A program made the position numbers and the translations under genes. A stretch of DNA of 59,350 nucleotides, from positions 1 through 59,350 of the forward strand of contig WHSN01000006.1 of NCBI GenBank assembly GCA_009380045.1, read 5' to 3'. The notes under the pieces are model-generated. The model saw only the letters and a list, made by a program, of their open reading frames with translations. It was not told where the DNA came from and ran no database searches. Position 1 is the first letter of the stretch; every line of letters begins with the position of its first letter. Shown piece after piece: positions 21,657 to 35,232 of the stretch. Source of the stretch: Luteitalea sp. (GTDB lineage: Bacteria > Acidobacteriota > Vicinamibacteria > Vicinamibacterales > CAVVIG01).

Positions 21657-22019
21657 GGTTCTTCACCTCTTCTGACGGCCACAGTGCATCGCTCGCGATG
21701 GTCCGCGCGAACCTGGACCTGTTGTAACTTCGAGTCGTTCCAAACTCAGCGGATTATCAGTGCCGCTCGTCGGGGGGATCAAAGCCGCATTTGTTACCAA
21801 TTGTCATGGGCGCCTTCGCGAACCCCTCCCGTCCAAAAATCCGCACGTCGCTGCACTGCAGAGACGGACCTGCAGGCTCGATCGGCGCCTCATCAACGCC
21901 GGCGGATTTGATGCGGCTCGGCCGTCGCGGCTGTTCGACCGATCGAGGTGCGCGACTGGCCTGCCGCATACCGGCTAGACTGGGGCTACGTGTCCGATCC
22001 CGTCTTCTTTGGTCGTGAC

Positions 22020-25000
22020 GTGAAATCCAGCAGCACACACTTGATCCTGGGCCTGGCAGCCGGACTGACGCTGTTGGCGTTGACGGCTGGCGTCTATCTC
22101 GTCAGTCAGCGGAGCGACCGGCTTCCAGCTCCAGGCTCGGAGGTGTCCGAAGGCGCGACGCGCAGCTTCTACCTCGGTCTGGCGTCGCTTCAGGTCGGCC
22201 TGCTCGACCGGGCGAGGCAGGAGTTCACGCGCACCACGGAACTGGTCGCCGCCGAGCCAGCGTCGTGGGCGAATCTGGGCCTGGTGCATCTCCGGCTTGG
22301 CGACTTCGACGCCGCGCAGCCACCGATCGAGCGGGCGGCGGCACTCGCACCCGAGAGCAGCGAGATTGCCTTCCTGCTGGGACGAATGGCCACCATGCAG
22401 GGCCGGCTCGAGGAGGGCATCGCCCATCTTCGGCGAGCGGTCGACCTGAATCCCCGCAACCTGCAAGCCCGCTTCACACTCGTTCAGGAGATCGAGCGCT
22501 CGAGTGGTCAGAATGCCGATGCCGAAGCGCAGCAGGAGCTCGAGGAGCTCCTCGGCCTGGAACCTGACAACCTGGCAGTGCTTGTGGAACGCACCCGCCT
22601 GGCTGCCAAACGCGGCGAGATCGCGGCGCTTGGCGATTCGCTCGCGCGGCTCGGCGGGCTGCGGGCCGCCTGGCCCGCCACGACCATCGAGCACTACGAT
22701 TCGCTGCAGCGCGCGGTTACGGCGCAGGATTTCCCGGGAGCGGCGCGGGCAAGCACGTTTCTCAGGAACGTCCTGCTGCCGACACCAGCCTTTCAGGAGG
22801 GCCGTGTCCGTGTGAGCCCCGGGGATGAGCTCATCGCCGAGCCGTTCGAGCGTTTCCTGAAACTGCCGTCACCGAGCTCGATGCCGTCACCTGCCGATGA
22901 ATCGCTCACGTTCAGCCGGGAGACGGTTGGTGCGGCCCGCACCACCCCATGGACGGCGGTGTTGGCAGTGTCACTGGACGGCAGCAGTGCCCCTGCAATC
23001 TTCGCCACTGCTGGCGCCGAGCTGCGACGAATCGACGGGCCCGAGATCATCCTGCCGTCCCCATCCGACAACCCGCCCGTCGAACCGGCATCGCCAGGTG
23101 GGCTGCTGGCGCTCGATTGGAATCACGACTTCAGGATGGATCTGGTGAGCGCGGGCCGCGGAGGCGTTCGGCTGCTGGTGCAAGGGGAAGACGGAACGTT
23201 CGCCGACGCCACGGCGAACGCGGCAGGGGCGAGCACCGCCGGCTTGACCGACTGTTTCGGCGCCTGGACCGCCGATGTCGAGATGGACGGCGATCTCGAC
23301 ATCATCGTCGGCATCGAGGACACCGCGCCACTGGTGCTGAGGAACAACGGGGACGGCACCTGGCGCACCCTGCAGCCATTTGCCGGCGTGTCGGGCCTTC
23401 GGAGCTTCTCGTGGGGCGACCTGGATGGAGACGGCGATCCCGATGCCGCGCTGCTCGACGCGCGGGGCGAGATGCACCTGTTCATGAATCGGCAAGCCGG
23501 CGACTTCCGCCGCGTCGACACCGCGCCGGCCCGGCCCGAGGTGATCGCGCTGACGGTGGGCGACGCCAACGCCGATGGCGTGCTCGACATCGTGACGCTT
23601 GATGCGCGCGGAGCGATCCGGCGGGTCTTTGTGAATTCCGACGTCTGGGAGGAGCAGCCGCTGGCAACGTGGCCCGATTGGTCGGGCCAGCCGCTGCCGG
23701 GAACGTCTCGACTGTTTCTCGCGGATCTGGACAACAACGGAGCGCTCGATCTCGCGGCATCCGGTGCCGGGCGCTCCCGCATCTGGCTCGCCGATGAACG
23801 AAACGAGCTCCGGCTGCTGCCGGCCACCCTCGACGCCGAGATTTTCAGCGTCATCGATCTCGACAACGACGGTCACCTCGACCTGGTCGGACTGTCGGAC
23901 GGCCGTGCCGTGCGTATCGCCGGGCGCGGCACGAGCGGCTACCACTGGCAGGTGATCCGGCCGCGTGCCCAATCGGTGGCCGGCGATCAGCGGATCAACT
24001 CATTCGGCGTCGGCGGCGACATCGAGATTCGATCCGGCCTGCTGACGCAGAAGCAGACCATTGCCGGTACCGCGGTGCACTTCGGCCTGGGCGCCCGCAC
24101 GAGCATCGACGTCGCACGAATCGTCTGGCCCAACGGCGTCGCGCAGGCCGAATTCGACCGCGAGGCCGATCAGGTCATCGTCGCCGACCAGCGTCTGAAG
24201 GGTTCGTGCCCCTGGGTCTTCACCTATGACGGCACCGGGATGCGCTTCGTGACCGACTTCCTCTGGCGCTCGCCGCTCGGACTGCGCATCAACGCGCAGG
24301 ACACGGCGGATGTCACGCAGACCGAGGACTGGGTGAGGATTCGCGGGGATCAACTCGTCCCGAAGAACGACGCCTACGACGTGCGGATCACCGCGGAACT
24401 GTGGGAGACCCATTTCTTCGACCATGTGTCCTTGATGGCCGTCGACCATCCAGATGACGTGGAGGTGTTCGTCGATGAACGGTTCTCGAGCCAGCCTCCG
24501 GCGCTTGCCACCCGGGCAGTCACCCGGCCGCGCGCGATCGCGCGCGCCTGGGACGAAGCCGGCCGCGACGTCACCGATCTGCTGGCGCACCAGGATGGTC
24601 GCTATCTGGCCACCTTCACGCGCGGGCCGTACCAGGGCATCGCCCAGGATCACTTCGTCGAGTTCGAGGTCGGCGCGGAAGTCCCGCGCGACCGGCCGCT
24701 GTGGCTGGTCGCCAACGGGTGGATCTACCCGACCGACAGCAGCATCAACGTGGCGATCGGACAGGGGCAGCACGCGAGGCCGCGCGGGCTGGCGCTCGAA
24801 GAGCGGGACGAGGCGGGCCGTTGGATGGTCGTCAATCCCGACCTGGGGTTTCCCGCTGGAAAGAACAAGACCATTCTGATCGATCTGAACAACACCGCCG
24901 GCGCTGGCGCGGCGCGCACCCGGCGTCTGCGCCTGCGGACGAACCTCGAGGTCTACTGGGACTGGCTCGCTGTCGCCAATGCCGTCGAGAACCCGTCGCT

Positions 25001-25511
25001 GGTGACGACACGACTGCAGCCGACGCGCGCCGAGCTTCGTTACCGGGGGTTCTCGCAGACGAGCTACGAGAGGCGCGATCTCCCGGAAGTGCCGCTCTAC
25101 CAGACGATTGCGAACGTCGGCCAGCGCTGGCGCGATTTGATCGGGTATTACACGCGCTTCGGCGACGTCGTCGAGCTGCTCGATCGCGTGGACGACCGCT
25201 ACGTGATCATGAACGCAGGCGACGAGCTGCAGCTGTCGTTCGCGGTGCCGCAGCCGCCGGCCGCCGGCTGGCGCCGCGATTTCGTGCTGATCGGCGATGG
25301 CTGGGAGAAAGACGGCGACTACAACACCGGCTTTTCCAAGACGGTGCAGCCGCTGCCGTCGCACGACCAACCCGCGTATGGACGGGCGGTTACGACGCTC
25401 GAGCTCGATCGCGATCCCGTGTATCAGCGGCACGCCGCCGACTGGCGGACGTATCACACCCGGTTTGTGACGCCGCGTGATTTTCTCCGGGGCGTCAGGG
25501 TAGCGCCATGA
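22020..25511 (+). CDS. Large TPR + FG-GAP + ASPIC/UnbV protein with an extra C-terminal domain
   Basis: N-terminal TM/signal segment, TPRs (WANLGL..LRLG), many DxDxDGxxD repeats, VHFGLG...IVWPNG (UnbV), then LKGSCP and a ~430-aa C-terminal domain. Confidence 0.88.
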   Translation: MKSSSTHLILGLAAGLTLLALTAGVYLVSQRSDRLPAPGSEVSEGATRSFYLGLASLQVGLLDRARQEFTRTTELVAAEPASWANLGLVHLRLGDFDAAQPPIERAAALAPESSEIAFLLGRMATMQGRLEEGIAHLRRAVDLNPRNLQARFTLVQEIERSSGQNADAEAQQELEELLGLEPDNLAVLVERTRLAAKRGEIAALGDSLARLGGLRAAWPATTIEHYDSLQRAVTAQDFPGAARASTFLRNVLLPTPAFQEGRVRVSPGDELIAEPFERFLKLPSPSSMPSPADESLTFSRETVGAARTTPWTAVLAVSLDGSSAPAIFATAGAELRRIDGPEIILPSPSDNPPVEPASPGGLLALDWNHDFRMDLVSAGRGGVRLLVQGEDGTFADATANAAGASTAGLTDCFGAWTADVEMDGDLDIIVGIEDTAPLVLRNNGDGTWRTLQPFAGVSGLRSFSWGDLDGDGDPDAALLDARGEMHLFMNRQAGDFRRVDTAPARPEVIALTVGDANADGVLDIVTLDARGAIRRVFVNSDVWEEQPLATWPDWSGQPLPGTSRLFLADLDNNGALDLAASGAGRSRIWLADERNELRLLPATLDAEIFSVIDLDNDGHLDLVGLSDGRAVRIAGRGTSGYHWQVIRPRAQSVAGDQRINSFGVGGDIEIRSGLLTQKQTIAGTAVHFGLGARTSIDVARIVWPNGVAQAEFDREADQVIVADQRLKGSCPWVFTYDGTGMRFVTDFLWRSPLGLRINAQDTADVTQTEDWVRIRGDQLVPKNDAYDVRITAELWETHFFDHVSLMAVDHPDDVEVFVDERFSSQPPALATRAVTRPRAIARAWDEAGRDVTDLLAHQDGRYLATFTRGPYQGIAQDHFVEFEVGAEVPRDRPLWLVANGWIYPTDSSINVAIGQGQHARPRGLALEERDEAGRWMVVNPDLGFPAGKNKTILIDLNNTAGAGAARTRRLRLRTNLEVYWDWLAVANAVENPSLVTTRLQPTRAELRYRGFSQTSYERRDLPEVPLYQTIANVGQRWRDLIGYYTRFGDVVELLDRVDDRYVIMNAGDELQLSFAVPQPPAAGWRRDFVLIGDGWEKDGDYNTGFSKTVQPLPSHDQPAYGRAVTTLELDRDPVYQRHAADWRTYHTRFVTPRDFLRGVRVAP

Positions 25512-27310
25512 CCGGGATCCCGTCCGAGCGCCCGCTGCGGCTGCTGTGGACCGTCCTGCTCGTCGCGTCGCTGGCCGCAGTCGTCGCGCTGAATCGGACG
25601 GCCGGGACGGGACGCGGGGCATCTGCCGAGCCGTCGGACGCCCTGGCTCGCTACGGGTTCCAGCTCGAAGAAGGCGCGGCGCGAGCAGGCGTCGCGTTCC
25701 TCCACCAGGGACCAACCTTCGATCGGCAGCTGGATCACATCATGCCGCAGGTCGCCTCGATGGGAGCTGCCGTCGCCGTCGCCGACTTCAATCGCGACGG
25801 CTGGCAGGATTTCTATGTCACCAACAGCGCCGAAGGAAGCCTGAATCGCCTGTACCGGAACGCCGGTGACGGCACCTTCAGCGATGTGGCCGCCGAGCTT
25901 GGCGTGGCAGACGTGAATCGGCTCGGCACCGGCGTTTCGATGGGCGCCGTCTGGGGTGACTACGACAACGACGGGTACGAAGATCTGTTTCTGTACAAGT
26001 ACGGGCGACCGGAGCTGTATCACAACGACAACGGACGCGGCTTCACACCGCTCGGCGAGCAGTCCGGACTCCCGCAATGGGTGAACGCCAACAGCGCCGT
26101 CTGGCTCGACTACGACCGGGACGGCTGGCTCGATCTCTTCCTGGCGGGATACTGGCCGGAGGAACTGGACCTCTGGAATCTGAAGACCACCCGCATCATG
26201 CCCGAAAGCTTCGAGTACGCCGAGAACGGAGGCAGGAAATACCTGCTCCGCAACCGGGGCAACGGCACGTTCGAAGATACCGCCGCGGAGGTCGGGATCG
26301 GCTCGCGCCGCTGGACGCTTGCCGCCGCGGCGGCCGATCTGTTGGGAACCGGGTACCCAGATCTGTTTGTCGCCAACGACTACGGCGTCGCCGAGCTCTA
26401 CGCCAACCAGGGCGGCAAGCAGTTCGTCGAAGTGAGCCGCGAGACCGGCGTCGGCCGCACCCCCAAGAGCGGCATGAATGCGGCCTTCGGCGACATCTTC
26501 AATGACGGCCGGCTGTCGATCTACAAGACGAACATCTCGGAACCGGGCGTGCTCGTCCAGGCCAACGATCTATGGGTGCCGAAGCAGGCCGGGGCGCGAG
26601 GAGGACTCGAGTACGAAAATCTCGCCTCGAGCATGGGCGTGGATCTGGGCGGCTGGAGCTGGGGGGCACAGTTCGGCGACTTGAACAACGATGGAACGCT
26701 CGACATCTATCTCGTGAACGGCTACGTCTCGGCCGGGGACCGAACGAGCTATTGGTACGACTTCTCCGAGATCGCGGTGGGGCACAGCGGCATCATCTCC
26801 GATGCGCGGAACTGGCCCGCCATGAGAGGCCGAAGCCTGTCCGGGTATCAGCGCAAGCGTGTCTGGATCAACGATGGCGTGGGTCGCTTCACCGAAGTGG
26901 CGCAGGTCGTCGGAGCGACCGACACCCATGATGGTCGCGCCGTCGCGCTGGCGGATCTGTCGAACGCCGGTGTGCTCGATGTGATCGTGGCAAACCAGCG
27001 TGGTCCGCTGCTGCTGTACAAGAACAGGGTGGAGCCCGGGCGCCACTGGATCGCCTTCGAGCTCGAAGGCGGCGCCAGCAACCGCAGCGCGATCGGCGCT
27101 CGCGTCGAGCTGCATTGGAACGGCCAGCGCCAGGTGCAGGAGGTCAGCGGTGGAAGCGGGTTCAGCTCGCAGAACCAGCGCCGGCTGCATTACGGGCTGG
27201 GCGCGTCGGGAAGTGTGGACCGCGTCGTGATCCGGTGGCCGACAGGCCGTGATCAGACGGTGGTCAATCCCCAGGTCGACATGCTCCACAGGATTGCGGA
27301 ACCTCGATGA
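25508..27310 (+). CDS. CRTAC1-family FG-GAP/ASPIC-UnbV protein (enediyne E4/UnbV-like)
   Basis: ATGA overlap with the upstream gene. DFNRDGWQD, DYDNDGYED and GWSWGAQFGDLNNDG repeats; SNRSAIGARV...LHYGLG...IRWPTG. Confidence 0.9.
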   Translation: MTGIPSERPLRLLWTVLLVASLAAVVALNRTAGTGRGASAEPSDALARYGFQLEEGAARAGVAFLHQGPTFDRQLDHIMPQVASMGAAVAVADFNRDGWQDFYVTNSAEGSLNRLYRNAGDGTFSDVAAELGVADVNRLGTGVSMGAVWGDYDNDGYEDLFLYKYGRPELYHNDNGRGFTPLGEQSGLPQWVNANSAVWLDYDRDGWLDLFLAGYWPEELDLWNLKTTRIMPESFEYAENGGRKYLLRNRGNGTFEDTAAEVGIGSRRWTLAAAAADLLGTGYPDLFVANDYGVAELYANQGGKQFVEVSRETGVGRTPKSGMNAAFGDIFNDGRLSIYKTNISEPGVLVQANDLWVPKQAGARGGLEYENLASSMGVDLGGWSWGAQFGDLNNDGTLDIYLVNGYVSAGDRTSYWYDFSEIAVGHSGIISDARNWPAMRGRSLSGYQRKRVWINDGVGRFTEVAQVVGATDTHDGRAVALADLSNAGVLDVIVANQRGPLLLYKNRVEPGRHWIAFELEGGASNRSAIGARVELHWNGQRQVQEVSGGSGFSSQNQRRLHYGLGASGSVDRVVIRWPTGRDQTVVNPQVDMLHRIAEPR

Positions 27311-28167
27311 GCCCCGGGACCGCGGCACTGTCGCCGGCCGAAGCGCTGCCGTCCCGGCAGCGATCCCGCCGGGCGTTCGACAATCGCCTTCTCGGCCCGA
27401 TTCTGATCACGTGCATCCTGATTGCCGCCCACCTGTCCTTCGGCATCCTCGAGGGGTACGAGGGAACCGCGCTCGCAATCGTGACGGCGATTCTGGCGGA
27501 GATGGCGCTCGGGCGCCTCACCTACGGCCGCTGGCCCCACCTGGCAAGCGCCTACATCACGGGCATCAGCGTCGGGATTCTGGTTCGCTCGCCGTTCATG
27601 TGGCCATACGCGCTCGGCAGCCTGATCTCGATTGCGACGAAGTACGTGCTGCGGCTGAAGGGACGGCATCTCTGGAACCCGTCGAATTTCGGCGTCAGCG
27701 CCGAGCTCTTTCTCGCACCCGCGACGGTGTCCCTCCTCAGCATCCAGTGGGGCAACACGGTGTGGCCGATGGCCGTCATCTGGCTGCTCGGCGCCGTGAT
27801 CGTCTGGCGCGTCGGGCGTCTGCACATCAGTGCGACCTACGTCGCGTCGTTTCTGCTCTTTTCGGTCGTGCGCAGCGGCGTCACGGGAAATCCGTGGCTC
27901 GCCAACGTGGCGCCGATCACCGGGCCGATGTACCAGTTGTTCATCTTTTTCATGGTCACCGATCCGAAGACGACGGTACGCCCGCGGTGGGCGCAGTGTC
28001 TGGTGGTGTTCCTGGTCGCATTCGTCGAGATGCTGCTGCGGCTGGCGGAAGTGGTCTATGCGCCGTTTTACGCGCTGTTCCTGGTCGGGCCGGCAGCCAT
28101 GGCGACCGAGATCTGGCTGGAGTCGCGGCGGCAGGTATCCCGGGGACCTGAAGCACCCGCATCGTAG
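27307..28167 (+). CDS. RnfD/NqrB-like integral membrane protein (enediyne E5/UnbU-like)
   Basis: ATGA overlap and multiple TM helices. SAYITGISV, KYVLR..GRHLWNPSNFG and FFMVTDPKT motifs; no flavinylation S(G/T)AT motif seen. Confidence 0.82.
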   Translation: MSPGTAALSPAEALPSRQRSRRAFDNRLLGPILITCILIAAHLSFGILEGYEGTALAIVTAILAEMALGRLTYGRWPHLASAYITGISVGILVRSPFMWPYALGSLISIATKYVLRLKGRHLWNPSNFGVSAELFLAPATVSLLSIQWGNTVWPMAVIWLLGAVIVWRVGRLHISATYVASFLLFSVVRSGVTGNPWLANVAPITGPMYQLFIFFMVTDPKTTVRPRWAQCLVVFLVAFVEMLLRLAEVVYAPFYALFLVGPAAMATEIWLESRRQVSRGPEAPAS

Positions 28168-29772
28168 TTAGAAGCGATCCGGCAGCGACATCTTCGTTGC
28201 CGCCGAGCTCACCAACCCGCAGCATTCGAGCAGACGGTGGATCTCCTCCACTGACGAGTCGAGCTTCGAGGCCGAGCTGAGGAGATCGTCGGCCAGCACC
28301 GGGTACCAATCCCGGCGCGTGCGATCGAGGAGGCCCGCCGTGTCGAACGGCTCGATCGCACGGTCGATGCGACCGAGCAGCGCGTCGTGGCCTCGACCAT
28401 GCGGCGATGCCGTCGCCAGCGCCGCGCACGCCCGAAGCTCCGGGCCGAATCGCGGGTGGGCGTGAAGAAGAAATCCCGGCGCGAGCTCAGGCCTTCCCAG
28501 CCGGCGCGCCGCCTCGCTGAAGCTCGCGGCGGCGAAATACAGCAGCGACAGCCGCTTGAAGAGCGGAACGTCGGACATGTTCGCGTACAGCGCCGCGACC
28601 AGCTGCTCGGTCGCGTCCAGCTCGAGCTCGGTCACCCGCGCATAGGCGGCGAGGGCGGTGTCGCGCTCGGACCCGCCGGAGGTACCTTCCAGCACGTCGA
28701 GCAGCCGCCCGATGCCGAGCAGCGTCAGCGGAAATCCGGTCGAGAGCAGCGGATCGATCACGCCCGCCGCCGAGGGCAGCATCGCCCATTTGTCGCCCCA
28801 CATCACGTGGGTGCGAAAGGCAACCCGGGGGGCGTGCACGAAGGGATGCACGACCCGAGCCTCGCGGAACTGGTCGCCGACCGACGGCAACGTCTTCAGC
28901 AGCCGCTCCCAGGCTGCCGCGCCGTCGCCGGCCCCGACCGCCTGCGCCACCCGATCGGTCAGCGCGGCGCCGGCGCTCGTGATCCCGTTGTTGAACCGCA
29001 GCACCCAGATCCACCCGCCGGGGAACACATGATGAAGTGCCGCAGCGTCGGGCGGATACGGCGGCGCCCCATCGGGCGGCATCATTTCATCCCATCGCCC
29101 CACATCCTCGAAGTGGGCGTAGAGACCCTGGGTGCGCGGCAGCCAGCGGAGCGGAGGGTCGGCGAGGCCGATCGCCCGATGCAGGAATCCGCGCGGCCCG
29201 CTGGCGTCTACCACGAACCGCGCCGAGATGCGGATCGATCGGCCATTCCGCGTCCCGTCGAGAACGGCGCGATCGCCCTTGTTGCGCATCCGCTCGAGCC
29301 GCGTCTCGTCGAGATAGACGGCGCCTTCAGCTTCGGCGTCGCACGCGAGCGCCTGATCGAAGTCCGGCCGGTACCAATGGGTGTCAGCCACCTCGTCGCG
29401 CGGGCTGGCCGCGACCAGGAGCTGGCATCGGTGCTCGCCGTCGTCGGCAAAGGGCTCACCGGGACGATGGAAGAGGAAGGTGAAACCGCGCTTCACGCCG
29501 CCGGCGACCTCCGGCCGCTCGCGCTGCCAGGTTCCCCACTTCGAGAACGGACGGATGCGCCGCAAGTCGTAGCGATCGGCCAGTTCCTCGAGCAGCAGGT
29601 TGGCCAGCGGAGTGGATGACTCGCCGATGGCGAACCGCGGATGGCGTCCACGTTCGACGAGCGCCACGCGGCGACCGCGTCGGGTCAGCGCGAGCGAGAC
29701 CAGCGCGCCAGCGAACCCGGAGCCGATCACCGCGACGTCGGCATCGACGTGCTCGATCGGAGTAATGGTCAT
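28168..29772 (-). CDS. Flavin-dependent halogenase, PrnC-like
   Basis: VIGSGFAG, RHPRFAIGESSTP, VKRGFTFLFHRPG, VVDASG, GGWIWVLRF (WxWxI-like) and AAGVIDPLLSTG motifs. Confidence 0.82.
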   Translation of the reverse strand: MTITPIEHVDADVAVIGSGFAGALVSLALTRRGRRVALVERGRHPRFAIGESSTPLANLLLEELADRYDLRRIRPFSKWGTWQRERPEVAGGVKRGFTFLFHRPGEPFADDGEHRCQLLVAASPRDEVADTHWYRPDFDQALACDAEAEGAVYLDETRLERMRNKGDRAVLDGTRNGRSIRISARFVVDASGPRGFLHRAIGLADPPLRWLPRTQGLYAHFEDVGRWDEMMPPDGAPPYPPDAAALHHVFPGGWIWVLRFNNGITSAGAALTDRVAQAVGAGDGAAAWERLLKTLPSVGDQFREARVVHPFVHAPRVAFRTHVMWGDKWAMLPSAAGVIDPLLSTGFPLTLLGIGRLLDVLEGTSGGSERDTALAAYARVTELELDATEQLVAALYANMSDVPLFKRLSLLYFAAASFSEAARRLGRPELAPGFLLHAHPRFGPELRACAALATASPHGRGHDALLGRIDRAIEPFDTAGLLDRTRRDWYPVLADDLLSSASKLDSSVEEIHRLLECCGLVSSAATKMSLPDRF

Positions 29773-30773
29773 GAAGAAACGCCGAAGCCGCACCTGGTGC
29801 AGGAAGGCCGTGAGCGCACACGCTGTTCGAGATTGATCGCGTGGAGGCGGGCGCGCCGCGCCTCGAAGCAGTGCCGGCATTGAGCGAAGCGCTGGAGGTC
29901 CCAGAGATCGACGAAAATCCGGCCGCGATCGGGACGCGGCGTGAGCGCCGACTCGATGCTGCGCTCGATGTCTTCGAGCCGTGGCGCCCGAAACGCTCCC
30001 GCCGCGGCCAGGGCATCGAGCGCGCCGTTCCCCGAGCGGGTCGGGATGACCGACACGGCCGAGGCGCCGCAGGCGAAGGCGACGTCGATCGATCGCAGCA
30101 GCCAATGGTCCTGCTCGGCGGGCGGGACAAACGGCGGCGAGATCAGCAGAAAGACGCGCAGCGCCGCTCCCCGGCTCCGCAGTTGCTCAGCCGCGGAGGC
30201 GAACTGGTCGACGGTCATTCGCTTGTTCAAGCGATCGAGAGCCTCCGGGTGCACGGTCTCCAGACCCATCGCAACCTCGAGTTGTGTGGTGTCCGCGGCG
30301 CCCTGACGCTGCAATGCGCCCAGAAACCGGTCCACCCTGGAGCCGACGAAAGCCGGGTGTGATTCCACCACCACGCGTGCGAGCCCGGCCAGCTTGACCG
30401 CCACCTCGTCGTAGTCGTGCTCGGGGACGGCGTGGGGATCGAAGAAGCTGCCGGCGTTGTAGAGCTTGATCTGCGTGATCGGGCTGGACTCCCCGCGCAG
30501 TTCCTCGCGCGCGGCGCCCACCTGCGCTGGAATGGCGCCTCGAGGTGTGTCTTCAGCAATCGTGTGTTGCCACAGATCGCACATCGCGCACCGCCAGGGG
30601 CACTCCCGCCCTGTCAGAAAGACAGTCGCCGCACGAGCGATTTGCCGGTCGGCCGTACGCTCGTCCTCGACGATGACGCCTTGATGGCGCCAGGGGCTGT
30701 GGAGCGGCTTCGGCCCACGTCGATCGAGGACGAAGCGGTCGCGAGCGGTCGCGCTGACAGGATAGAATCGCAT
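29769..30773 (-). CDS. Radical SAM enzyme resembling archaeosine-synthase radical SAM subunit RaSEA
   Basis: CPWRCAMC, IKLYNAGSFFD, VVESHP, EVAMGLET, LNK and FLLISPPF motifs; C-terminal CRHC...CTRC; its stop overlaps the halogenase start (ATGA). Confidence 0.85.
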   Translation of the reverse strand: MRFYPVSATARDRFVLDRRGPKPLHSPWRHQGVIVEDERTADRQIARAATVFLTGRECPWRCAMCDLWQHTIAEDTPRGAIPAQVGAAREELRGESSPITQIKLYNAGSFFDPHAVPEHDYDEVAVKLAGLARVVVESHPAFVGSRVDRFLGALQRQGAADTTQLEVAMGLETVHPEALDRLNKRMTVDQFASAAEQLRSRGAALRVFLLISPPFVPPAEQDHWLLRSIDVAFACGASAVSVIPTRSGNGALDALAAAGAFRAPRLEDIERSIESALTPRPDRGRIFVDLWDLQRFAQCRHCFEARRARLHAINLEQRVRSRPSCTRCGFGVSS

Positions 30774-30892: not shown

Positions 30893-31495
30893 ATGGGGGA
30901 CGTGGACGCAGTGCATGCCGGTGCTCTCCAGCCCGGTTCGACCATGACGTTCGTCGAGCGACTGAACGGTCCCCGGCACGAGCTCGCGTTGCGTGCGTTC
31001 ATGGTGATCGTCCTCGCGCACTGGGCCGAGCACCTGTTACAGGCTTTTCAGATCTACGCGCTCGGCTGGCCGGTGCCCGAGGCGCGCGGCGGGCTGGGGT
31101 ATTTCTTCCCCTGGCTCGTGGCGTCGGAAACGCTGCACTACGGGTACGCGCTGGTGATGCTTGCCGGCCTCTGGTTGCTGCGATCGGGCTTCACCGGCGT
31201 GAATGACCGCCGCTGGTGGACCATCGCTCTGGCGATCCAGTTCTTTCATCACATCGAACATGTGCTGCTGCAGACGCAGGCGCTCCTCGGCCAGAATTTC
31301 TTCGGTCAGCCAGTACCGACAAGCCTTGTCCAGCTCTGGGCGCCCCGGGTCGAGCTGCACCTTTTCTACAATACGGTGGTGTTCATCCCGATGGTTGTCG
31401 CGATGTACTTTCACATGTTTCCGCCATCACCAGAGACCACCACGCGGAAGTGCAGTTGTGCGTGGCATGCCGGTCGGGTCCCCGCGGCCGTGTGA
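30893..31495 (+). CDS. His/Glu-rich four-helix membrane protein of unknown function
   Basis: Internal duplication HWAEH...ETLH / HHIEH...VELH inside TM segments; C-terminal CSC. Confidence 0.8.
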   Translation: MGDVDAVHAGALQPGSTMTFVERLNGPRHELALRAFMVIVLAHWAEHLLQAFQIYALGWPVPEARGGLGYFFPWLVASETLHYGYALVMLAGLWLLRSGFTGVNDRRWWTIALAIQFFHHIEHVLLQTQALLGQNFFGQPVPTSLVQLWAPRVELHLFYNTVVFIPMVVAMYFHMFPPSPETTTRKCSCAWHAGRVPAAV

Positions 31496-31889
31496 CGGCG
31501 GCGCCTGCTTCTTGCTCATTCTCGCCGCTGCCTGCTGCATGGTTGCGGCATGCAGTGGCCGACCCGCTCTTGCGGAAGACGTGACTGTCGAATGGACGAT
31601 CAGGCCCAGGCCACCCGTCGCCGGTACAGCGGCGCTGGCGGAGCTGACACTGCGCGACCGGGCGCGCCGGCCGGTTCGTGGGGCCAGGCTGCAGGTCGAG
31701 GGGCACATGGCGCATCCCGGAATGGCGCCCCTCGTCGCCACCGCCGCAGAACGGGGCGACGGCGTCTACCAGATCCTGCTGCGGTTCACGATGCGCGGAA
31801 ACTGGATCCTGCTCGTGACCGGCAAGCTGCCGGATGGACGCAGGATCGATCATCGAATCGATGTCAATGCCACCGGCCCGGCAGGCTGA
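31467..31889 (+). CDS. FixH/YtkA-like lipoprotein
   Basis: Lipobox VAAC; PVRGARLQVEGHMAHPGM, GDGVY and FTMRGNW motifs. Start uncertain. Confidence 0.8.
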   Translation: MPVGSPRPCDGGACFLLILAAACCMVAACSGRPALAEDVTVEWTIRPRPPVAGTAALAELTLRDRARRPVRGARLQVEGHMAHPGMAPLVATAAERGDGVYQILLRFTMRGNWILLVTGKLPDGRRIDHRIDVNATGPAG

Positions 31890-33291
31890 CGTTTTACGGT
31901 GGCCCGTCATCGGGGCCTTCCTGCGCTGGCGGCATGCGCGCACGTCACTCCAGCTCGTTGTCCTCCTGATTACCGCGACGCTGGTCGCTCATGGGCTGTT
32001 CGGTTCCCAGATCGGACCGAGGAACCTCGCCACAGTCGTCACCTGGGTGCACTATCGCGGATTGCTGGTGATTGCGCTGCTGGCGGCGGGCAATCTGTTC
32101 TGCACCGGCTGTCCGTTCGTGCTGGTGCGCGACGTCGGACGTCGGGTTCGCCAGCCGTGGCTCCGCTGGCCCCATCGACTCCGCACGAAATGGATCGGCA
32201 TCCTGCTGTTCGTCTCGGTCCTCTTCATCTACGAGCTGTTCGACTTGTGGGCGCTGCCGCGGGGCACGGCCCTTCTGGTGCTCGCCTACTTCGGCGCCGC
32301 GCTGTCGGTCGATCTCGTCTTTGCCGGAGCGACGTTCTGCAAGTACTTGTGTCCGATCGGGCAGTTCAACTTCGTGGCGTCGACCGTGTCTCCGCTGGCG
32401 CTCCAGGTTCGCCAGCCGGAGACCTGCAGGACGTGTCGTACGTTCGATTGCATCAAGGGGCGCCCGGAGACGAACCAGCGGGGCTGCGAGCTCGGCCTCT
32501 TCCTGCCGGCCAAGATCGGCAGTCTCGATTGCACCTTCTGCCTCGACTGCGTCCAGGCGTGCCCGCACGACAACGTGGCGCTGGCGGTCGGCGTCCCAGG
32601 CGCCGAGCTGCTCGACCTCCGTCGGCGTTCGGGAATCGGCCGGCTGACCGAGCGGTGGGATGTCGCGACGCTGACGGTTCTGTTTGCGTTCGGCGGCCTC
32701 TTGAACGCCTTCGCGATGACCGCGCCGGTCCTCGATCTCGAGCGGTGGCTGGCGCGCGTGATGGGCAGCACGTCGGAGGCGCCGGTACTCGCGGTTCTCT
32801 TCGTTGTCGCGCTCGGTGCGGTTCCGCTCGCAGCGCTGGGCGGCGCCGCAGCCGTCACGCGGCACCTGACGCGGCCGACCTCGTACTCGGTCGGGCAGAT
32901 CGCGGTTCGCTACGCCTGCGCGCTCGTCCCCTTCGGGTTCGGCGTGTGGCTGGCCCACTACGGGTTCCACCTGCTCACCGGCGGGCTGACGATCATCCCG
33001 GTGGCCCAGAGCGCCATCATCGAGGTGGTCGGTTGGGCCGCGCTCGGCGCCCCGATGTGGCAGTGGACCGGGATGCAGCCTGGCGCCGTTTTCCCAATCC
33101 AGCTCGGATTCATCCTGTTGGGATCGATCGGATCGCTGGCACTGTCGTATCTCATCTCCGAGCGCGACTATCCGGACCGACCGGTCTTCGCGGCGGCTCC
33201 GTGGCTCGGAGTGGTGCTCGTGCTGGCCGCGGCTGCGGTGTGGATCCTGTCGCAGCCCATGGAGATGAGAGGATTGGGCCTCTCGGGATGA
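31861..33291 (+). CDS. Polytopic membrane 4Fe-4S-binding protein (NapH/MauN/RdxA/NosR-like)
   Basis: FCTGCPF, FCKYLCPIG, CRTCRTFDC, GCEL and CTFCLDCVQACP motifs with many TM helices. Confidence 0.85.
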   Translation: MSMPPARQADVLRWPVIGAFLRWRHARTSLQLVVLLITATLVAHGLFGSQIGPRNLATVVTWVHYRGLLVIALLAAGNLFCTGCPFVLVRDVGRRVRQPWLRWPHRLRTKWIGILLFVSVLFIYELFDLWALPRGTALLVLAYFGAALSVDLVFAGATFCKYLCPIGQFNFVASTVSPLALQVRQPETCRTCRTFDCIKGRPETNQRGCELGLFLPAKIGSLDCTFCLDCVQACPHDNVALAVGVPGAELLDLRRRSGIGRLTERWDVATLTVLFAFGGLLNAFAMTAPVLDLERWLARVMGSTSEAPVLAVLFVVALGAVPLAALGGAAAVTRHLTRPTSYSVGQIAVRYACALVPFGFGVWLAHYGFHLLTGGLTIIPVAQSAIIEVVGWAALGAPMWQWTGMQPGAVFPIQLGFILLGSIGSLALSYLISERDYPDRPVFAAAPWLGVVLVLAAAAVWILSQPMEMRGLGLSG

Positions 33292-33839
33292 GGCGGCGGA
33301 CCGGCTTGCGGGCGGCCGCGTTCGCGGCGGCAACCGCCGTTGCGGCAGCCATCGCGCCCGCCCAGGCACACGACGGCCCGCCGTTCCCGATCGTGTCGGA
33401 CGCCGTCGCCGGCCCGTATCGCATTTCGATCTGGACCGATCCCGACACCACCGATGATGGCACGCCGGGCGGGCAGTTCTGGATCGTCATCGAGCCGGTG
33501 GATCGGGCGGTCTCGCTTCCGCCGGAAACGCAGGCAAGCATCTCAATCGAGCCGCTCGATCGAAGCGGACCGGCACGGACGGCCCGGATGGCGCCGGTCA
33601 CCAACGATGTGGCGCGTCAGTTCGTCGCGCTGGCGATCGATCACGAAGGCCGCTTCGCCGTGCAAGCGGCGATCGACGGGCCGCTGGGCAAGGCGGCGGT
33701 GGATGGAGAGGTCGAGGCCACCTACGATCTGCGGCCGCCGCCGATGATGCTGGCCGTGTACCTGATGCCGTTCGTCCTGGTCGGCCTTCTCTGGGGCAGA
33801 TTGCTGCTCGCGCGGCGGCGCCATCGGAGTGAGAGATGA
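33288..33839 (+). CDS. Exported, C-terminally membrane-anchored protein with a mature N-terminal His
   Basis: ATGA overlap, signal peptide ending AQA|HDGPPF, Ig-like body, C-terminal TM helix and basic tail. Confidence 0.8.
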   Translation: MRRRTGLRAAAFAAATAVAAAIAPAQAHDGPPFPIVSDAVAGPYRISIWTDPDTTDDGTPGGQFWIVIEPVDRAVSLPPETQASISIEPLDRSGPARTARMAPVTNDVARQFVALAIDHEGRFAVQAAIDGPLGKAAVDGEVEATYDLRPPPMMLAVYLMPFVLVGLLWGRLLLARRRHRSER

Positions 33840-33855: not shown

Positions 33856-35232
33856 TCAGCGTGCCGCCGCCGACGGCGCCGGGGCGGTCGTGGGCGCCGC
33901 TGTGGAGTAGAGGCGGTCGAACGTCCGGCGGTAGCCGCTCTCGTCCTGTCCGATGCGGGCGCGCAGTGTCTCAACCGGCATCGCGCCGTGCTGAAAGCGC
34001 CGCTTCGGAAACACCGGCATGTCCACCCCGGCGATCGCCTTGATCCCGCGCCGCACGATGTCACCTTTGAGCGCGTAGAGCGACGGCACGTCGTACTGCG
34101 TCAGGCTGGCGAAGGGAATCGCCTCGGCCACTTCGATCACGTTTCGCTGCGTGTAGGGGCTGAAACCGGCAAACCCGTAGCGCTGCCCCGGCGCATAGGT
34201 GCGGACGTAGCTTCGGCTCAGTCCGCCGCTGTAAGTGAGTGAATGTTTGATGCGTCCGACGCCCCAACCCTCCTGATACAGCATCAGATTGTCGATGACG
34301 CTGCGGATCGTCAGCTCGGCGTTCTCGTCGATCGGATAGTCCTTGAGGTTCTCGTCGCCGCCGTCCCCATCGGCGAGATGGCGCCAGCCCGGATACCGGT
34401 CGCGAATGCCCTTGCAGAGCCGCAGGCCCATCGCCGCGCACTCGACGTCGAGCGGCTTGTAGTCCTCGAGAACACGCACGGTTTCCTCGACATCGAGATC
34501 CTCGGCTGTGGCGTCGATCTCCTCGAGGAACAGGGACAGGCCGGCCGCGGAGAGAAACGCGCGGGCTTGATGCAGGTCTGGGCCGTCGCCGAGATTGAGC
34601 ACGAATGCCTTGAGCCTCGACGGCGACATGCCGAGGCGCAGCATGGCGTGATAGGTGAGGAGGAACACCGATCCGCTGTCGACGCCGCCGGAAAAAGCGA
34701 CCCCGATCGGTTCCGGACCCGACCCGCGCGTCTCGATGCCGCGCAGCCATTGCACGATCTCGTCCTCGAGAGCGCCGACATACCGCCGGCCGATCTCGTC
34801 GAGGTCGGCAGCGAGCGTCGCCCTCGGCGGCGTGAAGAAGCGGGTGTAGGCCGGATCCGGATCAGGACACCCGACCAGCGCGAGTTGGACCACGTAGTGG
34901 GCCGGCACCATGCGGGTGTAGCTCGGGTGGAACTGATTCGCCAGGCCGTCGTTCGCCAGCGCCTGGTGCAAGGTGTCGATGCGATCCGCGACATACAGCG
35001 CCGGGCCTTCCTGGCGTTTGGCCAGGAAGTAGCGCATCGGCCGATCCATCGAGCGCGCCAGGCGGACGACGACCCCTTCGGCCGCCACGAGGGCGAACGA
35101 TCCATCGATGGCGCGGACGGCGGCCGGGTCGCCGCTGAGCACCGAGCGCCGTGCGGCTTCCACATCCATGTTGGGGATTCGATTCAGAGCCGGGTCGAGG
35201 AGATCGACCACACGGCTGACCGGATGACGCAT
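33856..35232 (-). CDS. Asparagine-synthetase-like ATP-dependent amide ligase lacking the glutaminase Cys1
   Basis: Degenerate N-domain (IDGSFALV...LARSMDRPMRY), PP-loop IGVAFSGGVDS, then DGDGGDENL and FSPY. Confidence 0.85.
   Translation of the reverse strand: MRHPVSRVVDLLDPALNRIPNMDVEAARRSVLSGDPAAVRAIDGSFALVAAEGVVVRLARSMDRPMRYFLAKRQEGPALYVADRIDTLHQALANDGLANQFHPSYTRMVPAHYVVQLALVGCPDPDPAYTRFFTPPRATLAADLDEIGRRYVGALEDEIVQWLRGIETRGSGPEPIGVAFSGGVDSGSVFLLTYHAMLRLGMSPSRLKAFVLNLGDGPDLHQARAFLSAAGLSLFLEEIDATAEDLDVEETVRVLEDYKPLDVECAAMGLRLCKGIRDRYPGWRHLADGDGGDENLKDYPIDENAELTIRSVIDNLMLYQEGWGVGRIKHSLTYSGGLSRSYVRTYAPGQRYGFAGFSPYTQRNVIEVAEAIPFASLTQYDVPSLYALKGDIVRRGIKAIAGVDMPVFPKRRFQHGAMPVETLRARIGQDESGYRRTFDRLYSTAAPTTAPAPSAAAR

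Follow-up and report, generated by a model that had tools for sequence, protein, structure and literature searches.

A candidate amino-acid nitrogen relay in bacteria: a cassette of a RaSEA-like radical SAM protein, an AsnB-type ligase and a halogenase-family flavoprotein

A locus of the acidobacterium Luteitalea sp. raises the question of why a gene resembling archaeal RaSEA should be kept next to a halogenase-like gene in a bacterium. RaSEA is described in PMC11298593 as converting preQ0-lysine to archaeosine. The locus lies in a stretch of 59,350 nucleotides (contig WHSN01000006.1 of assembly GCA_009380045.1), hereafter called the window, which was handled as contig C219; the assembly comprises 4.3 Mb in 251 contigs and is 90.3% complete, and close relatives of the window proteins are labelled Vicinamibacterales or other Acidobacteriota. 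The open reading frames (ORFs) and their translations place a gene for a 334-residue radical S-adenosylmethionine (SAM) protein at 29769-30773 on the minus strand, followed on the same strand by a gene for a 534-residue flavoprotein at 28168-29772, with its ATG at 29772. A preliminary description, made from the nucleotide sequence only, had named these two genes and had reported that the stop codon of the first overlaps the start codon of the second; a check of the junction confirmed this, as ATGA at 29769-29772 of the minus strand contains both the TGA that ends the radical SAM gene and the ATG of the flavoprotein gene. Pfam, Foldseek and locus comparison added a third member, a 458-residue ATP-dependent ligase similar to AsnB and beta-lactam synthetase (33856-35232, minus strand), which had escaped the preliminary description because a 3-kb cassette on the opposite strand separates it from the radical SAM gene. 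The three genes are referred to below as the module.

The association of the three genes was assessed by scanning one genome per species with the radical SAM protein, which returned 31 related loci from Acidobacteriota, Verrucomicrobiota, Planctomycetota, one Chitinophagaceae (Bacteroidota) assembly and one assembly labelled Babeliales. The flavoprotein gene directly followed the radical SAM gene in 26 of these loci, the exceptions being L021, L023, L025, L031, whose contig ends at that point, and L032, a 25%-identity relative. The ligase gene was present in 26 of the 31 loci as well; in 23 it immediately preceded the radical SAM gene, in the same orientation, its end often overlapping the radical SAM start; overlapping start and stop codons were frequent among the module genes. 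The four-gene cassette that splits the ligase from the radical SAM gene was found in the window, L005 and L009. Whole-genome searches located a flavoprotein orthologue elsewhere in the genomes of L021, L023 and L025, and the ligase elsewhere in the genome of L028. The locus L025, with its ligase and radical SAM genes, belongs to Roseimaritima sediminicola JC651, a carrier that can be cultivated.

Joint occurrence was then evaluated in 121 Acidobacteriota drawn evenly across the phylum. The radical SAM orthologue was found in nine of these genomes; the ligase occurred in the same nine, plus a 47%-identity relative in G016, and the flavoprotein in eight of the nine, plus a 30%-identity protein in G039. 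The genes were contiguous in all seven carriers of the complete set besides the window genome. One of the nine carriers (G029) is flagged as unpublished, as is the genome of L002. Among 151 sampled Verrucomicrobiota, the radical SAM profile matched the starting genome only, and this sample therefore added none to the QueC comparison given below. A search for longer proteins returned apparent fusions, four of ligase with radical SAM protein and three of radical SAM protein with flavoprotein, each represented by a singleton sequence, as well as a further, partial fusion of the latter type (P0222); the same search showed no fusion of a module gene to any other domain. Gene order, coupling and joint presence or absence are established by these comparisons, and the ligase, radical SAM and flavoprotein genes behave as one accessory cassette of patchy spread. 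Such a distribution agrees with the suggestion of the preliminary description that a lyase of the tRNA-modification type, here one related to archaeosine synthesis, had been recruited to another task.

The family of the radical SAM protein was assigned on hidden Markov model (HMM) scores alone. The best NCBIfam match was RaSEA (TIGR01210) with an E-value of 6.5e-26 and 91.3 bits over profile positions 3-235 of 313, below the curated equivalog cut-off of 212.15 bits, and the second family was MnmL/YtqA/YhcC (TIGR01212) at 21 bits. TIGR01210 was the nearest family for all 24 orthologues taken from the related loci (best E 7.8e-30), and TIGR01212 was also matched by eight of them; a grouping with HemN-type enzymes, which the preliminary description had named as the outcome speaking against its view, was not what the HMM search returned. 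Of 8000 database candidates that were scored, 5642 were related at E<=1e-3, and 1361 cluster representatives at 50% identity were obtained, so that the likeness goes far beyond chance.

All the motifs previously listed for this protein were found in its translation, namely C58PWRC62AMC65, QIKLYNAGSFFD, VVESHP, LEVAMGLET, LNKR, LLISPPF and a C-terminal CRHC...CTRC. The cluster motif C58x3C62x2C65 was invariant in the 24 aligned orthologues, which also conserved the blocks KLYNxGSFFD, VExHP, LEVAxGxE, NK, PPF and IPxRxGNG. The C-terminal CxxC...CxxC, which the preliminary description had compared with RaSEA, was absent or incomplete in at least seven of them and is thus no trait of the family. 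A search of PDB sequences returned no related solved structure. The AlphaFold model had a mean predicted local distance difference test score (pLDDT) of 93.8, and the fold search with this model returned generic radical SAM barrels only, Elp3 being first, together with MgmA, pyruvate formate-lyase (PFL) activase and queuine lyase, at template modelling (TM) scores of 0.42-0.55. Neither Pfam nor the predicted model showed a SPASM or peptide-recognition domain, and two look-ups in the ESM Atlas returned only the proteins' own families. The host genome contains a single TIGR01210-like gene. The DUF5591 domain of ArcS had no match in this genome, at its 90.3% completeness, and was matched in control archaea. 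Judged by its sequence, the protein is a bacterial relative of RaSEA and not an archaeosine enzyme, because its score is 91 bits against a cut-off of 212 and the genome shows no ArcS and, of related genes, just a bacterial TGT, QueC and QueE of the ordinary kind on other contigs; the label "RaSEA-like" given in the preliminary description can therefore be kept for the nearest family and not for orthology.

The flavoprotein matched the Pfam family Trp_halogenase with 53.5 bits (cut-off 21). Among PDB sequences it came closest to PltM, with an E-value of 5e-43, and to CtcP, a tetracycline halogenase, with one of 9e-42, about 400 residues being aligned; CmlS, PltA and others followed at about 1e-16. 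Its best NCBIfam match, QhpG, scored 69 bits where 240 would be required. The FAD site GSGFAG is present as G17-S-G19-F-A-G22. The motif WxWxIP is a hallmark of flavin-dependent halogenases and reads WLWVIP in PltM and WMWIIP in CtcP; at its place the flavoprotein has W254-x-W256-x-L258-R259, and this WxWxLR form was found in 22 of 22 orthologues. The absence of GD from the GDAAG motif, pointed out earlier, was borne out, the corresponding residues being LPSAAG in the flavoprotein, LPQATG in PltM and MSHAAG in CtcP.

Residue K94 of the flavoprotein aligned with Lys87 of PltM and Lys98 of CtcP, the numbering being consistent after tag offsets of 20, 1 and 3 residues, and it was invariant in all 22 orthologues; the loss of the catalytic lysine that the preliminary description had considered was thus not seen in these alignments. 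These residues of PltM and CtcP are called the conserved catalytic lysine in the CtcP paper (PMC12400496). The designation "PrnC-like" is a fair one for the group, since the nearest relatives, PltM and CtcP (E about 1e-43), are the templates used for PrnC in PMC10770391, where PltM, about 30-36% identical, serves for the PrnC model and CtcP is ranked closer still. Taken together, the alignments indicate that the flavoprotein belongs to the halogenase family as a member of the PltM/CtcP group, with halogenation as its predicted activity.

The ligase matched the Pfam family Asn_synthase (PF00733) with 35.9 bits (cut-off 21). Its PP-loop FSGGVDSG (F180-S-G-G-x-D-S-G187) was invariant in an alignment of 20 orthologues, as was a second block, GDGGDENLKDYP. 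Orthologues from the different phyla showed 51-78% identity to the window protein, the mean column identity of the 20 aligned sequences being 68%. Automatic annotation names this protein a glutamine-hydrolysing asparagine synthase; this was ruled out because the N-terminal cysteine nucleophile, expected at position 2, was absent from all 20 orthologues. The predicted model was of moderate quality, with a mean pLDDT of 68.9 and a poor N-terminal domain scoring <50 over long stretches. Foldseek searches of the PDB with the well-modelled part returned beta-lactam synthetase (E 1.9e-8), the asparagine synthetases of E. coli and human, and carbapenam synthetase. Family membership and conserved catalytic residues are therefore established here for each of the three proteins.

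The reading that we favour, to which we give slightly less than an even chance, is that the module is a self-contained set of three accessory enzymes acting on a small molecule outside tRNA archaeosine synthesis. The ligase, which has no glutaminase nucleophile, would adenylate a carboxylate and condense it with an amino-acid amine, possibly that of lysine by analogy with ArcS. The radical SAM enzyme would then take a hydrogen from the alkyl part and cut the N-C(alkyl) bond, leaving a primary amide, so that the amino acid would serve as nitrogen carrier in place of glutamine. The PltM/CtcP-type halogenase would chlorinate or brominate an electron-rich aromatic ring of phenol or pyrrole type in the same molecule, either before or after ligation and N-dealkylation. 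We infer the chemistry of these steps, their order, the amine donor and the free metabolite as substrate from the relatives of the three proteins. Cleavage of a C-N bond appears the most likely chemistry for the radical SAM protein, because enzymes of the two nearest families strip the alkyl substituent off and leave a bare nitrogen: RaSEA as described above, and MnmL/YhcC in the conversion of 5-carboxymethylaminomethyl-2-thiouridine (cmnm5s2U) to 5-aminomethyl-2-thiouridine (nm5s2U) reported in bioRxiv 10.64898/2026.05.18.725915.

Several observations weigh against this proposal. The lysine relay is drawn by likeness to distant relatives, and with WxWxLR in place of WxWxIP in every orthologue halogenation is not certain. 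The degree to which the ligase is conserved resembles that of enzymes modifying cofactors or macromolecules more than that of the usual tailoring enzymes of natural products. Scans of the loci and of the window revealed no flavin reductase, transporter, regulator or precursor-supply gene conserved beside the module, which would be unusual for a secondary-metabolite cluster. The altered halogenase motif, the high conservation of the ligase and the lack of conserved accessory genes all count against a classical natural-product cluster. Furthermore, some genomes carry two of the three genes: G124 has ligase and radical SAM protein with no flavoprotein at E<=1e-30, and searches of the L021 and L026 genomes, both assemblies of unstated completeness, returned no ligase. 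Finally, the singleton fusion proteins could be sequencing artefacts caused by read errors, since the module genes overlap.

Among the alternatives, the one that stands up best places the module in an undescribed branch of 7-deazapurine metabolism, which we consider unlikely. 7-carboxy-7-deazaguanine (CDG), the product of QueE, bears a carboxylate on a pyrrolopyrimidine. The ligase would adenylate CDG and attach lysine, the radical SAM enzyme would free 7-amido-7-deazaguanine, and the halogenase would act on the pyrrole ring, the module standing in for QueC in some genomes; the resulting halogenated pyrrolopyrimidine base could occur as a metabolite or modify a nucleic acid. Both QueC and the ligase are PP-loop enzymes. 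RaSEA, according to PMC11298593, has a lysine adduct of a 7-deazaguanine as its only known substrate. A halogenated deazapurine had been put forward in the preliminary description, together with a check of the genome for queC, queD, queE, tgt and arcS. The host genome has one ordinary bacterial TGT and adjacent QueE and QueC genes, all on contigs other than that of the module, and ArcS was not found in it.

The distribution of QueC gave mixed evidence on this point. With a QueC match counted as missing when none reached E<=1e-30, seven of the 38 module-bearing genomes checked were without one, against six of the 112 module-free Acidobacteriota. These seven are G010 and G124, both about 100% complete, and G001, G281, G283, G284 and G288. 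QueE was kept in four of them: G010 has adjacent QueD and QueE genes (QueE 298 bits) and TGT, G124 has a QueE of another, weaker type (152 bits) with QueD and TGT, G001 encodes QueE, QueD and TGT with no detectable QueC, and G288 encodes QueE, again with no detectable QueC. No QueE-less genome was found among the module carriers of known high completeness, and in two loci of Pirellulaceae the QueG gene is two genes away from the module. However, the models used detected neither QueC nor QueE in the module-bearing G281, G283 and G284, and dependence on the cell's own CDG would be ruled out if these assemblies were complete. An ordinary QueC is present in 31 of the 38 carriers, so that the module is no simple replacement for it, and three module-free genomes of one family have no QueC at the threshold and yet show QueE-like matches. 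The enrichment is small, the genomes are interrelated, and a large number of them were assembled from metagenomes, with completeness not stated. In the loci examined, the module never adjoins queD, queE or tgt.

A second, divergent QueC-like gene was observed in G000 (C131:12587-13201; L041:5531-6220, minus strand). It scores 73.7 bits to TIGR00364, whose cut-off is 150, and weakly matches QatC of the Qat anti-phage system; its neighbours match no family.

The genes adjoining the module bring up another possibility. Two FG-GAP/ASPIC (CRTAC1-type) beta-propeller genes, of a kind that recurs beside the module, lie on the plus strand of the window, one of 1187 residues with TPR repeats (21948-25511) and one of 600 residues (25508-27310), followed by a gene for a 286-residue, distantly NqrB/RnfD-like membrane protein (27307-28167, plus strand) that is convergent with the flavoprotein gene. 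The module might mature a protein or make a protein cofactor, the client being the secreted propeller with its NqrB/RnfD-like partner and the flavoprotein modifying an aromatic residue in the manner of QhpG, LodB and GoxB; we judge this improbable. Orthologues of the 600-residue propeller (>=63% identity) occur in four of the nine module-bearing genomes and in none of the 112 module-free ones in the acidobacterial sample, and orthologues of the membrane protein (>=57% identity) occur in the same four only, always adjacent to the propeller. The carriers of the pair are G000, G033 (the genome of L020), G104 (C2:341873-344478) and G010 (C38:121024-123620), and in G010 the pair is on a different contig from the module. 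The orthologue of the membrane protein in L017 matched Pfam NQR2_RnfD_RnfE with an E-value of 1.2e-7, and FG-GAP/ASPIC genes are also found near the module in one Chitinophagaceae and one Tepidisphaerales locus. These data are hints that the product of the module may serve FG-GAP/ASPIC and NqrB/RnfD-like envelope proteins in some lineages.

Nevertheless, five of the nine carriers are without the propeller and membrane-protein pair, so that the module can do without it. Peptides can be substrates of AsnB-like enzymes, lasso peptide cyclases being an example, and QhpG is the best NCBIfam match of the flavoprotein; this match is far below its cut-off, and PltM and CtcP, which halogenate small molecules, are much nearer to the flavoprotein. 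Neither a small ORF nor a precursor gene was conserved between or beside the three module genes, and the absence of a SPASM or peptide-recognition domain from the radical SAM protein also argues against this reading.

The assignment of the flavoprotein leaves room for an oxygen-dependent oxidase or hydroxylase instead of a halogenase, which is quite improbable in our estimation. Its nearest relatives are, by a wide margin, proven halogenases, the defining lysine of halogenase chemistry does not vary, and the GD motif is missing from PltM and CtcP too. These features have to be set against the change to WxWxLR in all orthologues and the lack of a flavin reductase gene nearby. Such an enzyme might be the aerobic counterpart of the oxygen-sensitive radical SAM step, as suggested by the FAD-dependent MnmC and the radical SAM enzyme YhcC, which according to bioRxiv 10.64898/2026.05.18.725915 perform one C-N cleavage in the presence and in the absence of air, respectively. 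Lastly, a true bacterial RaSEA making archaeosine or deoxyarchaeosine in tRNA or DNA is hardly credible, for although TIGR01210 is the best-matching family and the Joint Genome Institute (JGI) automatically names relatives "archaeosine synthase beta-subunit", the score is less than half of the cut-off, no ArcS DUF5591 domain occurs in the 90%-complete genome, the gene is conserved together with an AsnB-like ligase and a halogenase and not with ArcS or ArcTGT, and only nine of the 121 sampled Acidobacteriota have the gene.

The cassette that separates the ligase gene from the radical SAM gene in the window was defined from its ORFs and family searches (30893-33839, plus strand). It encodes a 200-residue membrane protein (30893-31495), a YtkA-like protein (about 31500-31889), a NapH/MauN/CcoG-type polyferredoxin membrane protein (31834-33291) and a 183-residue protein (33288-33839) whose ATG overlaps the stop codon of the preceding gene, and it resembles a unit for copper or redox handling in the periplasm. 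A YtkA/NapH-type cassette is located near the module in nine acidobacterial loci, in three arrangements (between the module genes, downstream and upstream). It was considered as a module-specific element and rejected, since orthologues are present in the module-free genomes G039 and G105, and the proximity is taken as local synteny of doubtful significance. In G039 (C4:31986-49205), the orthologue of the NapH-type cassette (51% identity) is about 15 kb away from a halogenase-family gene of 30% identity.

At the other end of the module, the stop codons of the membrane-protein and flavoprotein genes abut at 28165-28170 with zero intergenic bases and no room for a terminator. A Pfam scan of the remaining window proteins revealed nothing resembling a biosynthetic cluster and recognized a pyrroloquinoline quinone (PQQ) dehydrogenase, TonB-type receptors, and NHL, cupin and TPR proteins. 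In three Pirellulaceae loci (L023:900-4304, L025:996-4466 and L029:890-4372, minus strand) a divergent fusion protein of 1134-1160 residues is encoded just upstream of the ligase gene; it combines a fatty-acyl-AMP-ligase-like domain, a carrier protein and an aminotransferase of alpha-oxoamine-synthase type, and QueG lies beyond it in two of the three loci.

A description of the module was not found in open-access papers and preprints, and subscription journals may differ in this respect; the RaSEA papers found there, among the matches listed, dealt with archaea or were general reviews. The parts of the module are of known kinds, and we infer that the trio, with the amino-acid nitrogen relay that it implies in bacteria, is without prior description in the open-access literature. 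If the proposed small-molecule pathway is correct, the device used by archaea for archaeosine, in which an amino acid is attached and radically cut off with its nitrogen left behind, would exist in bacteria too, joined to a different ligase and to a halogenase, in a cassette found in soil Acidobacteriota, Planctomycetota, Verrucomicrobiota and Bacteroidota. It would represent a new glutamine-free route to amides and a new source of halogenated metabolites in phyla of little-known chemistry. As the module comprises three genes and is seemingly self-contained, it is directly testable by heterologous expression.

Each component can be compared with a known system. The ligase is of the same fold family as beta-lactam and carbapenam synthetases, AsnB homologues devoid of glutaminase activity, has a PP-loop ATP site as they do and, again like them, lacks the N-terminal cysteine nucleophile; it differs from them in its 12-19% identity, its poorly modelled N-terminal domain and its partners, and gives no sign of ring closure. 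The flavoprotein resembles PltM and CtcP, which with PrnC make up a group of flavin-dependent halogenases of free phenols and pyrroles, over about 400 residues (E 1e-43 to 1e-42) in the GxGxxG motif, the HPRFxIGES block, the catalytic lysine, the missing GD and a long helical C-terminal region, and is likened to PrnC through the PltM/CtcP alignment. It differs in that it carries WxWxLR where PltM and CtcP have WxWxIP, lies outside polyketide, pyrrolnitrin and tetracycline clusters and has no reductase partner nearby.

As regards the radical SAM protein, MnmL/YtqA/YhcC (TIGR01212) is the second-nearest family, and it likewise removes an alkyl group from nitrogen, forming nm5s2U from cmnm5s2U according to the bioRxiv preprint. 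The likeness to this family is much weaker, and its members act alone on tRNA with no ligase or flavoprotein partner. The nearest curated family is that of the ArcS-RaSEA system of Euryarchaeota. The module differs from that system in several respects: its radical SAM protein stays far under the cut-off of the family, it includes a flavoprotein of halogenase type, it occurs patchily and in bacteria, and the partner is an ATP-dependent ligase of AsnB/beta-lactam synthetase type that would act on a carboxylate, whereas ArcS is a TGT-like lysine transferase acting on a nitrile. What the two would have in common is the order of events proposed for the module, in which an amino acid is first linked through its amine, the radical SAM enzyme then cuts the N-alkyl bond and the nitrogen stays on the product.

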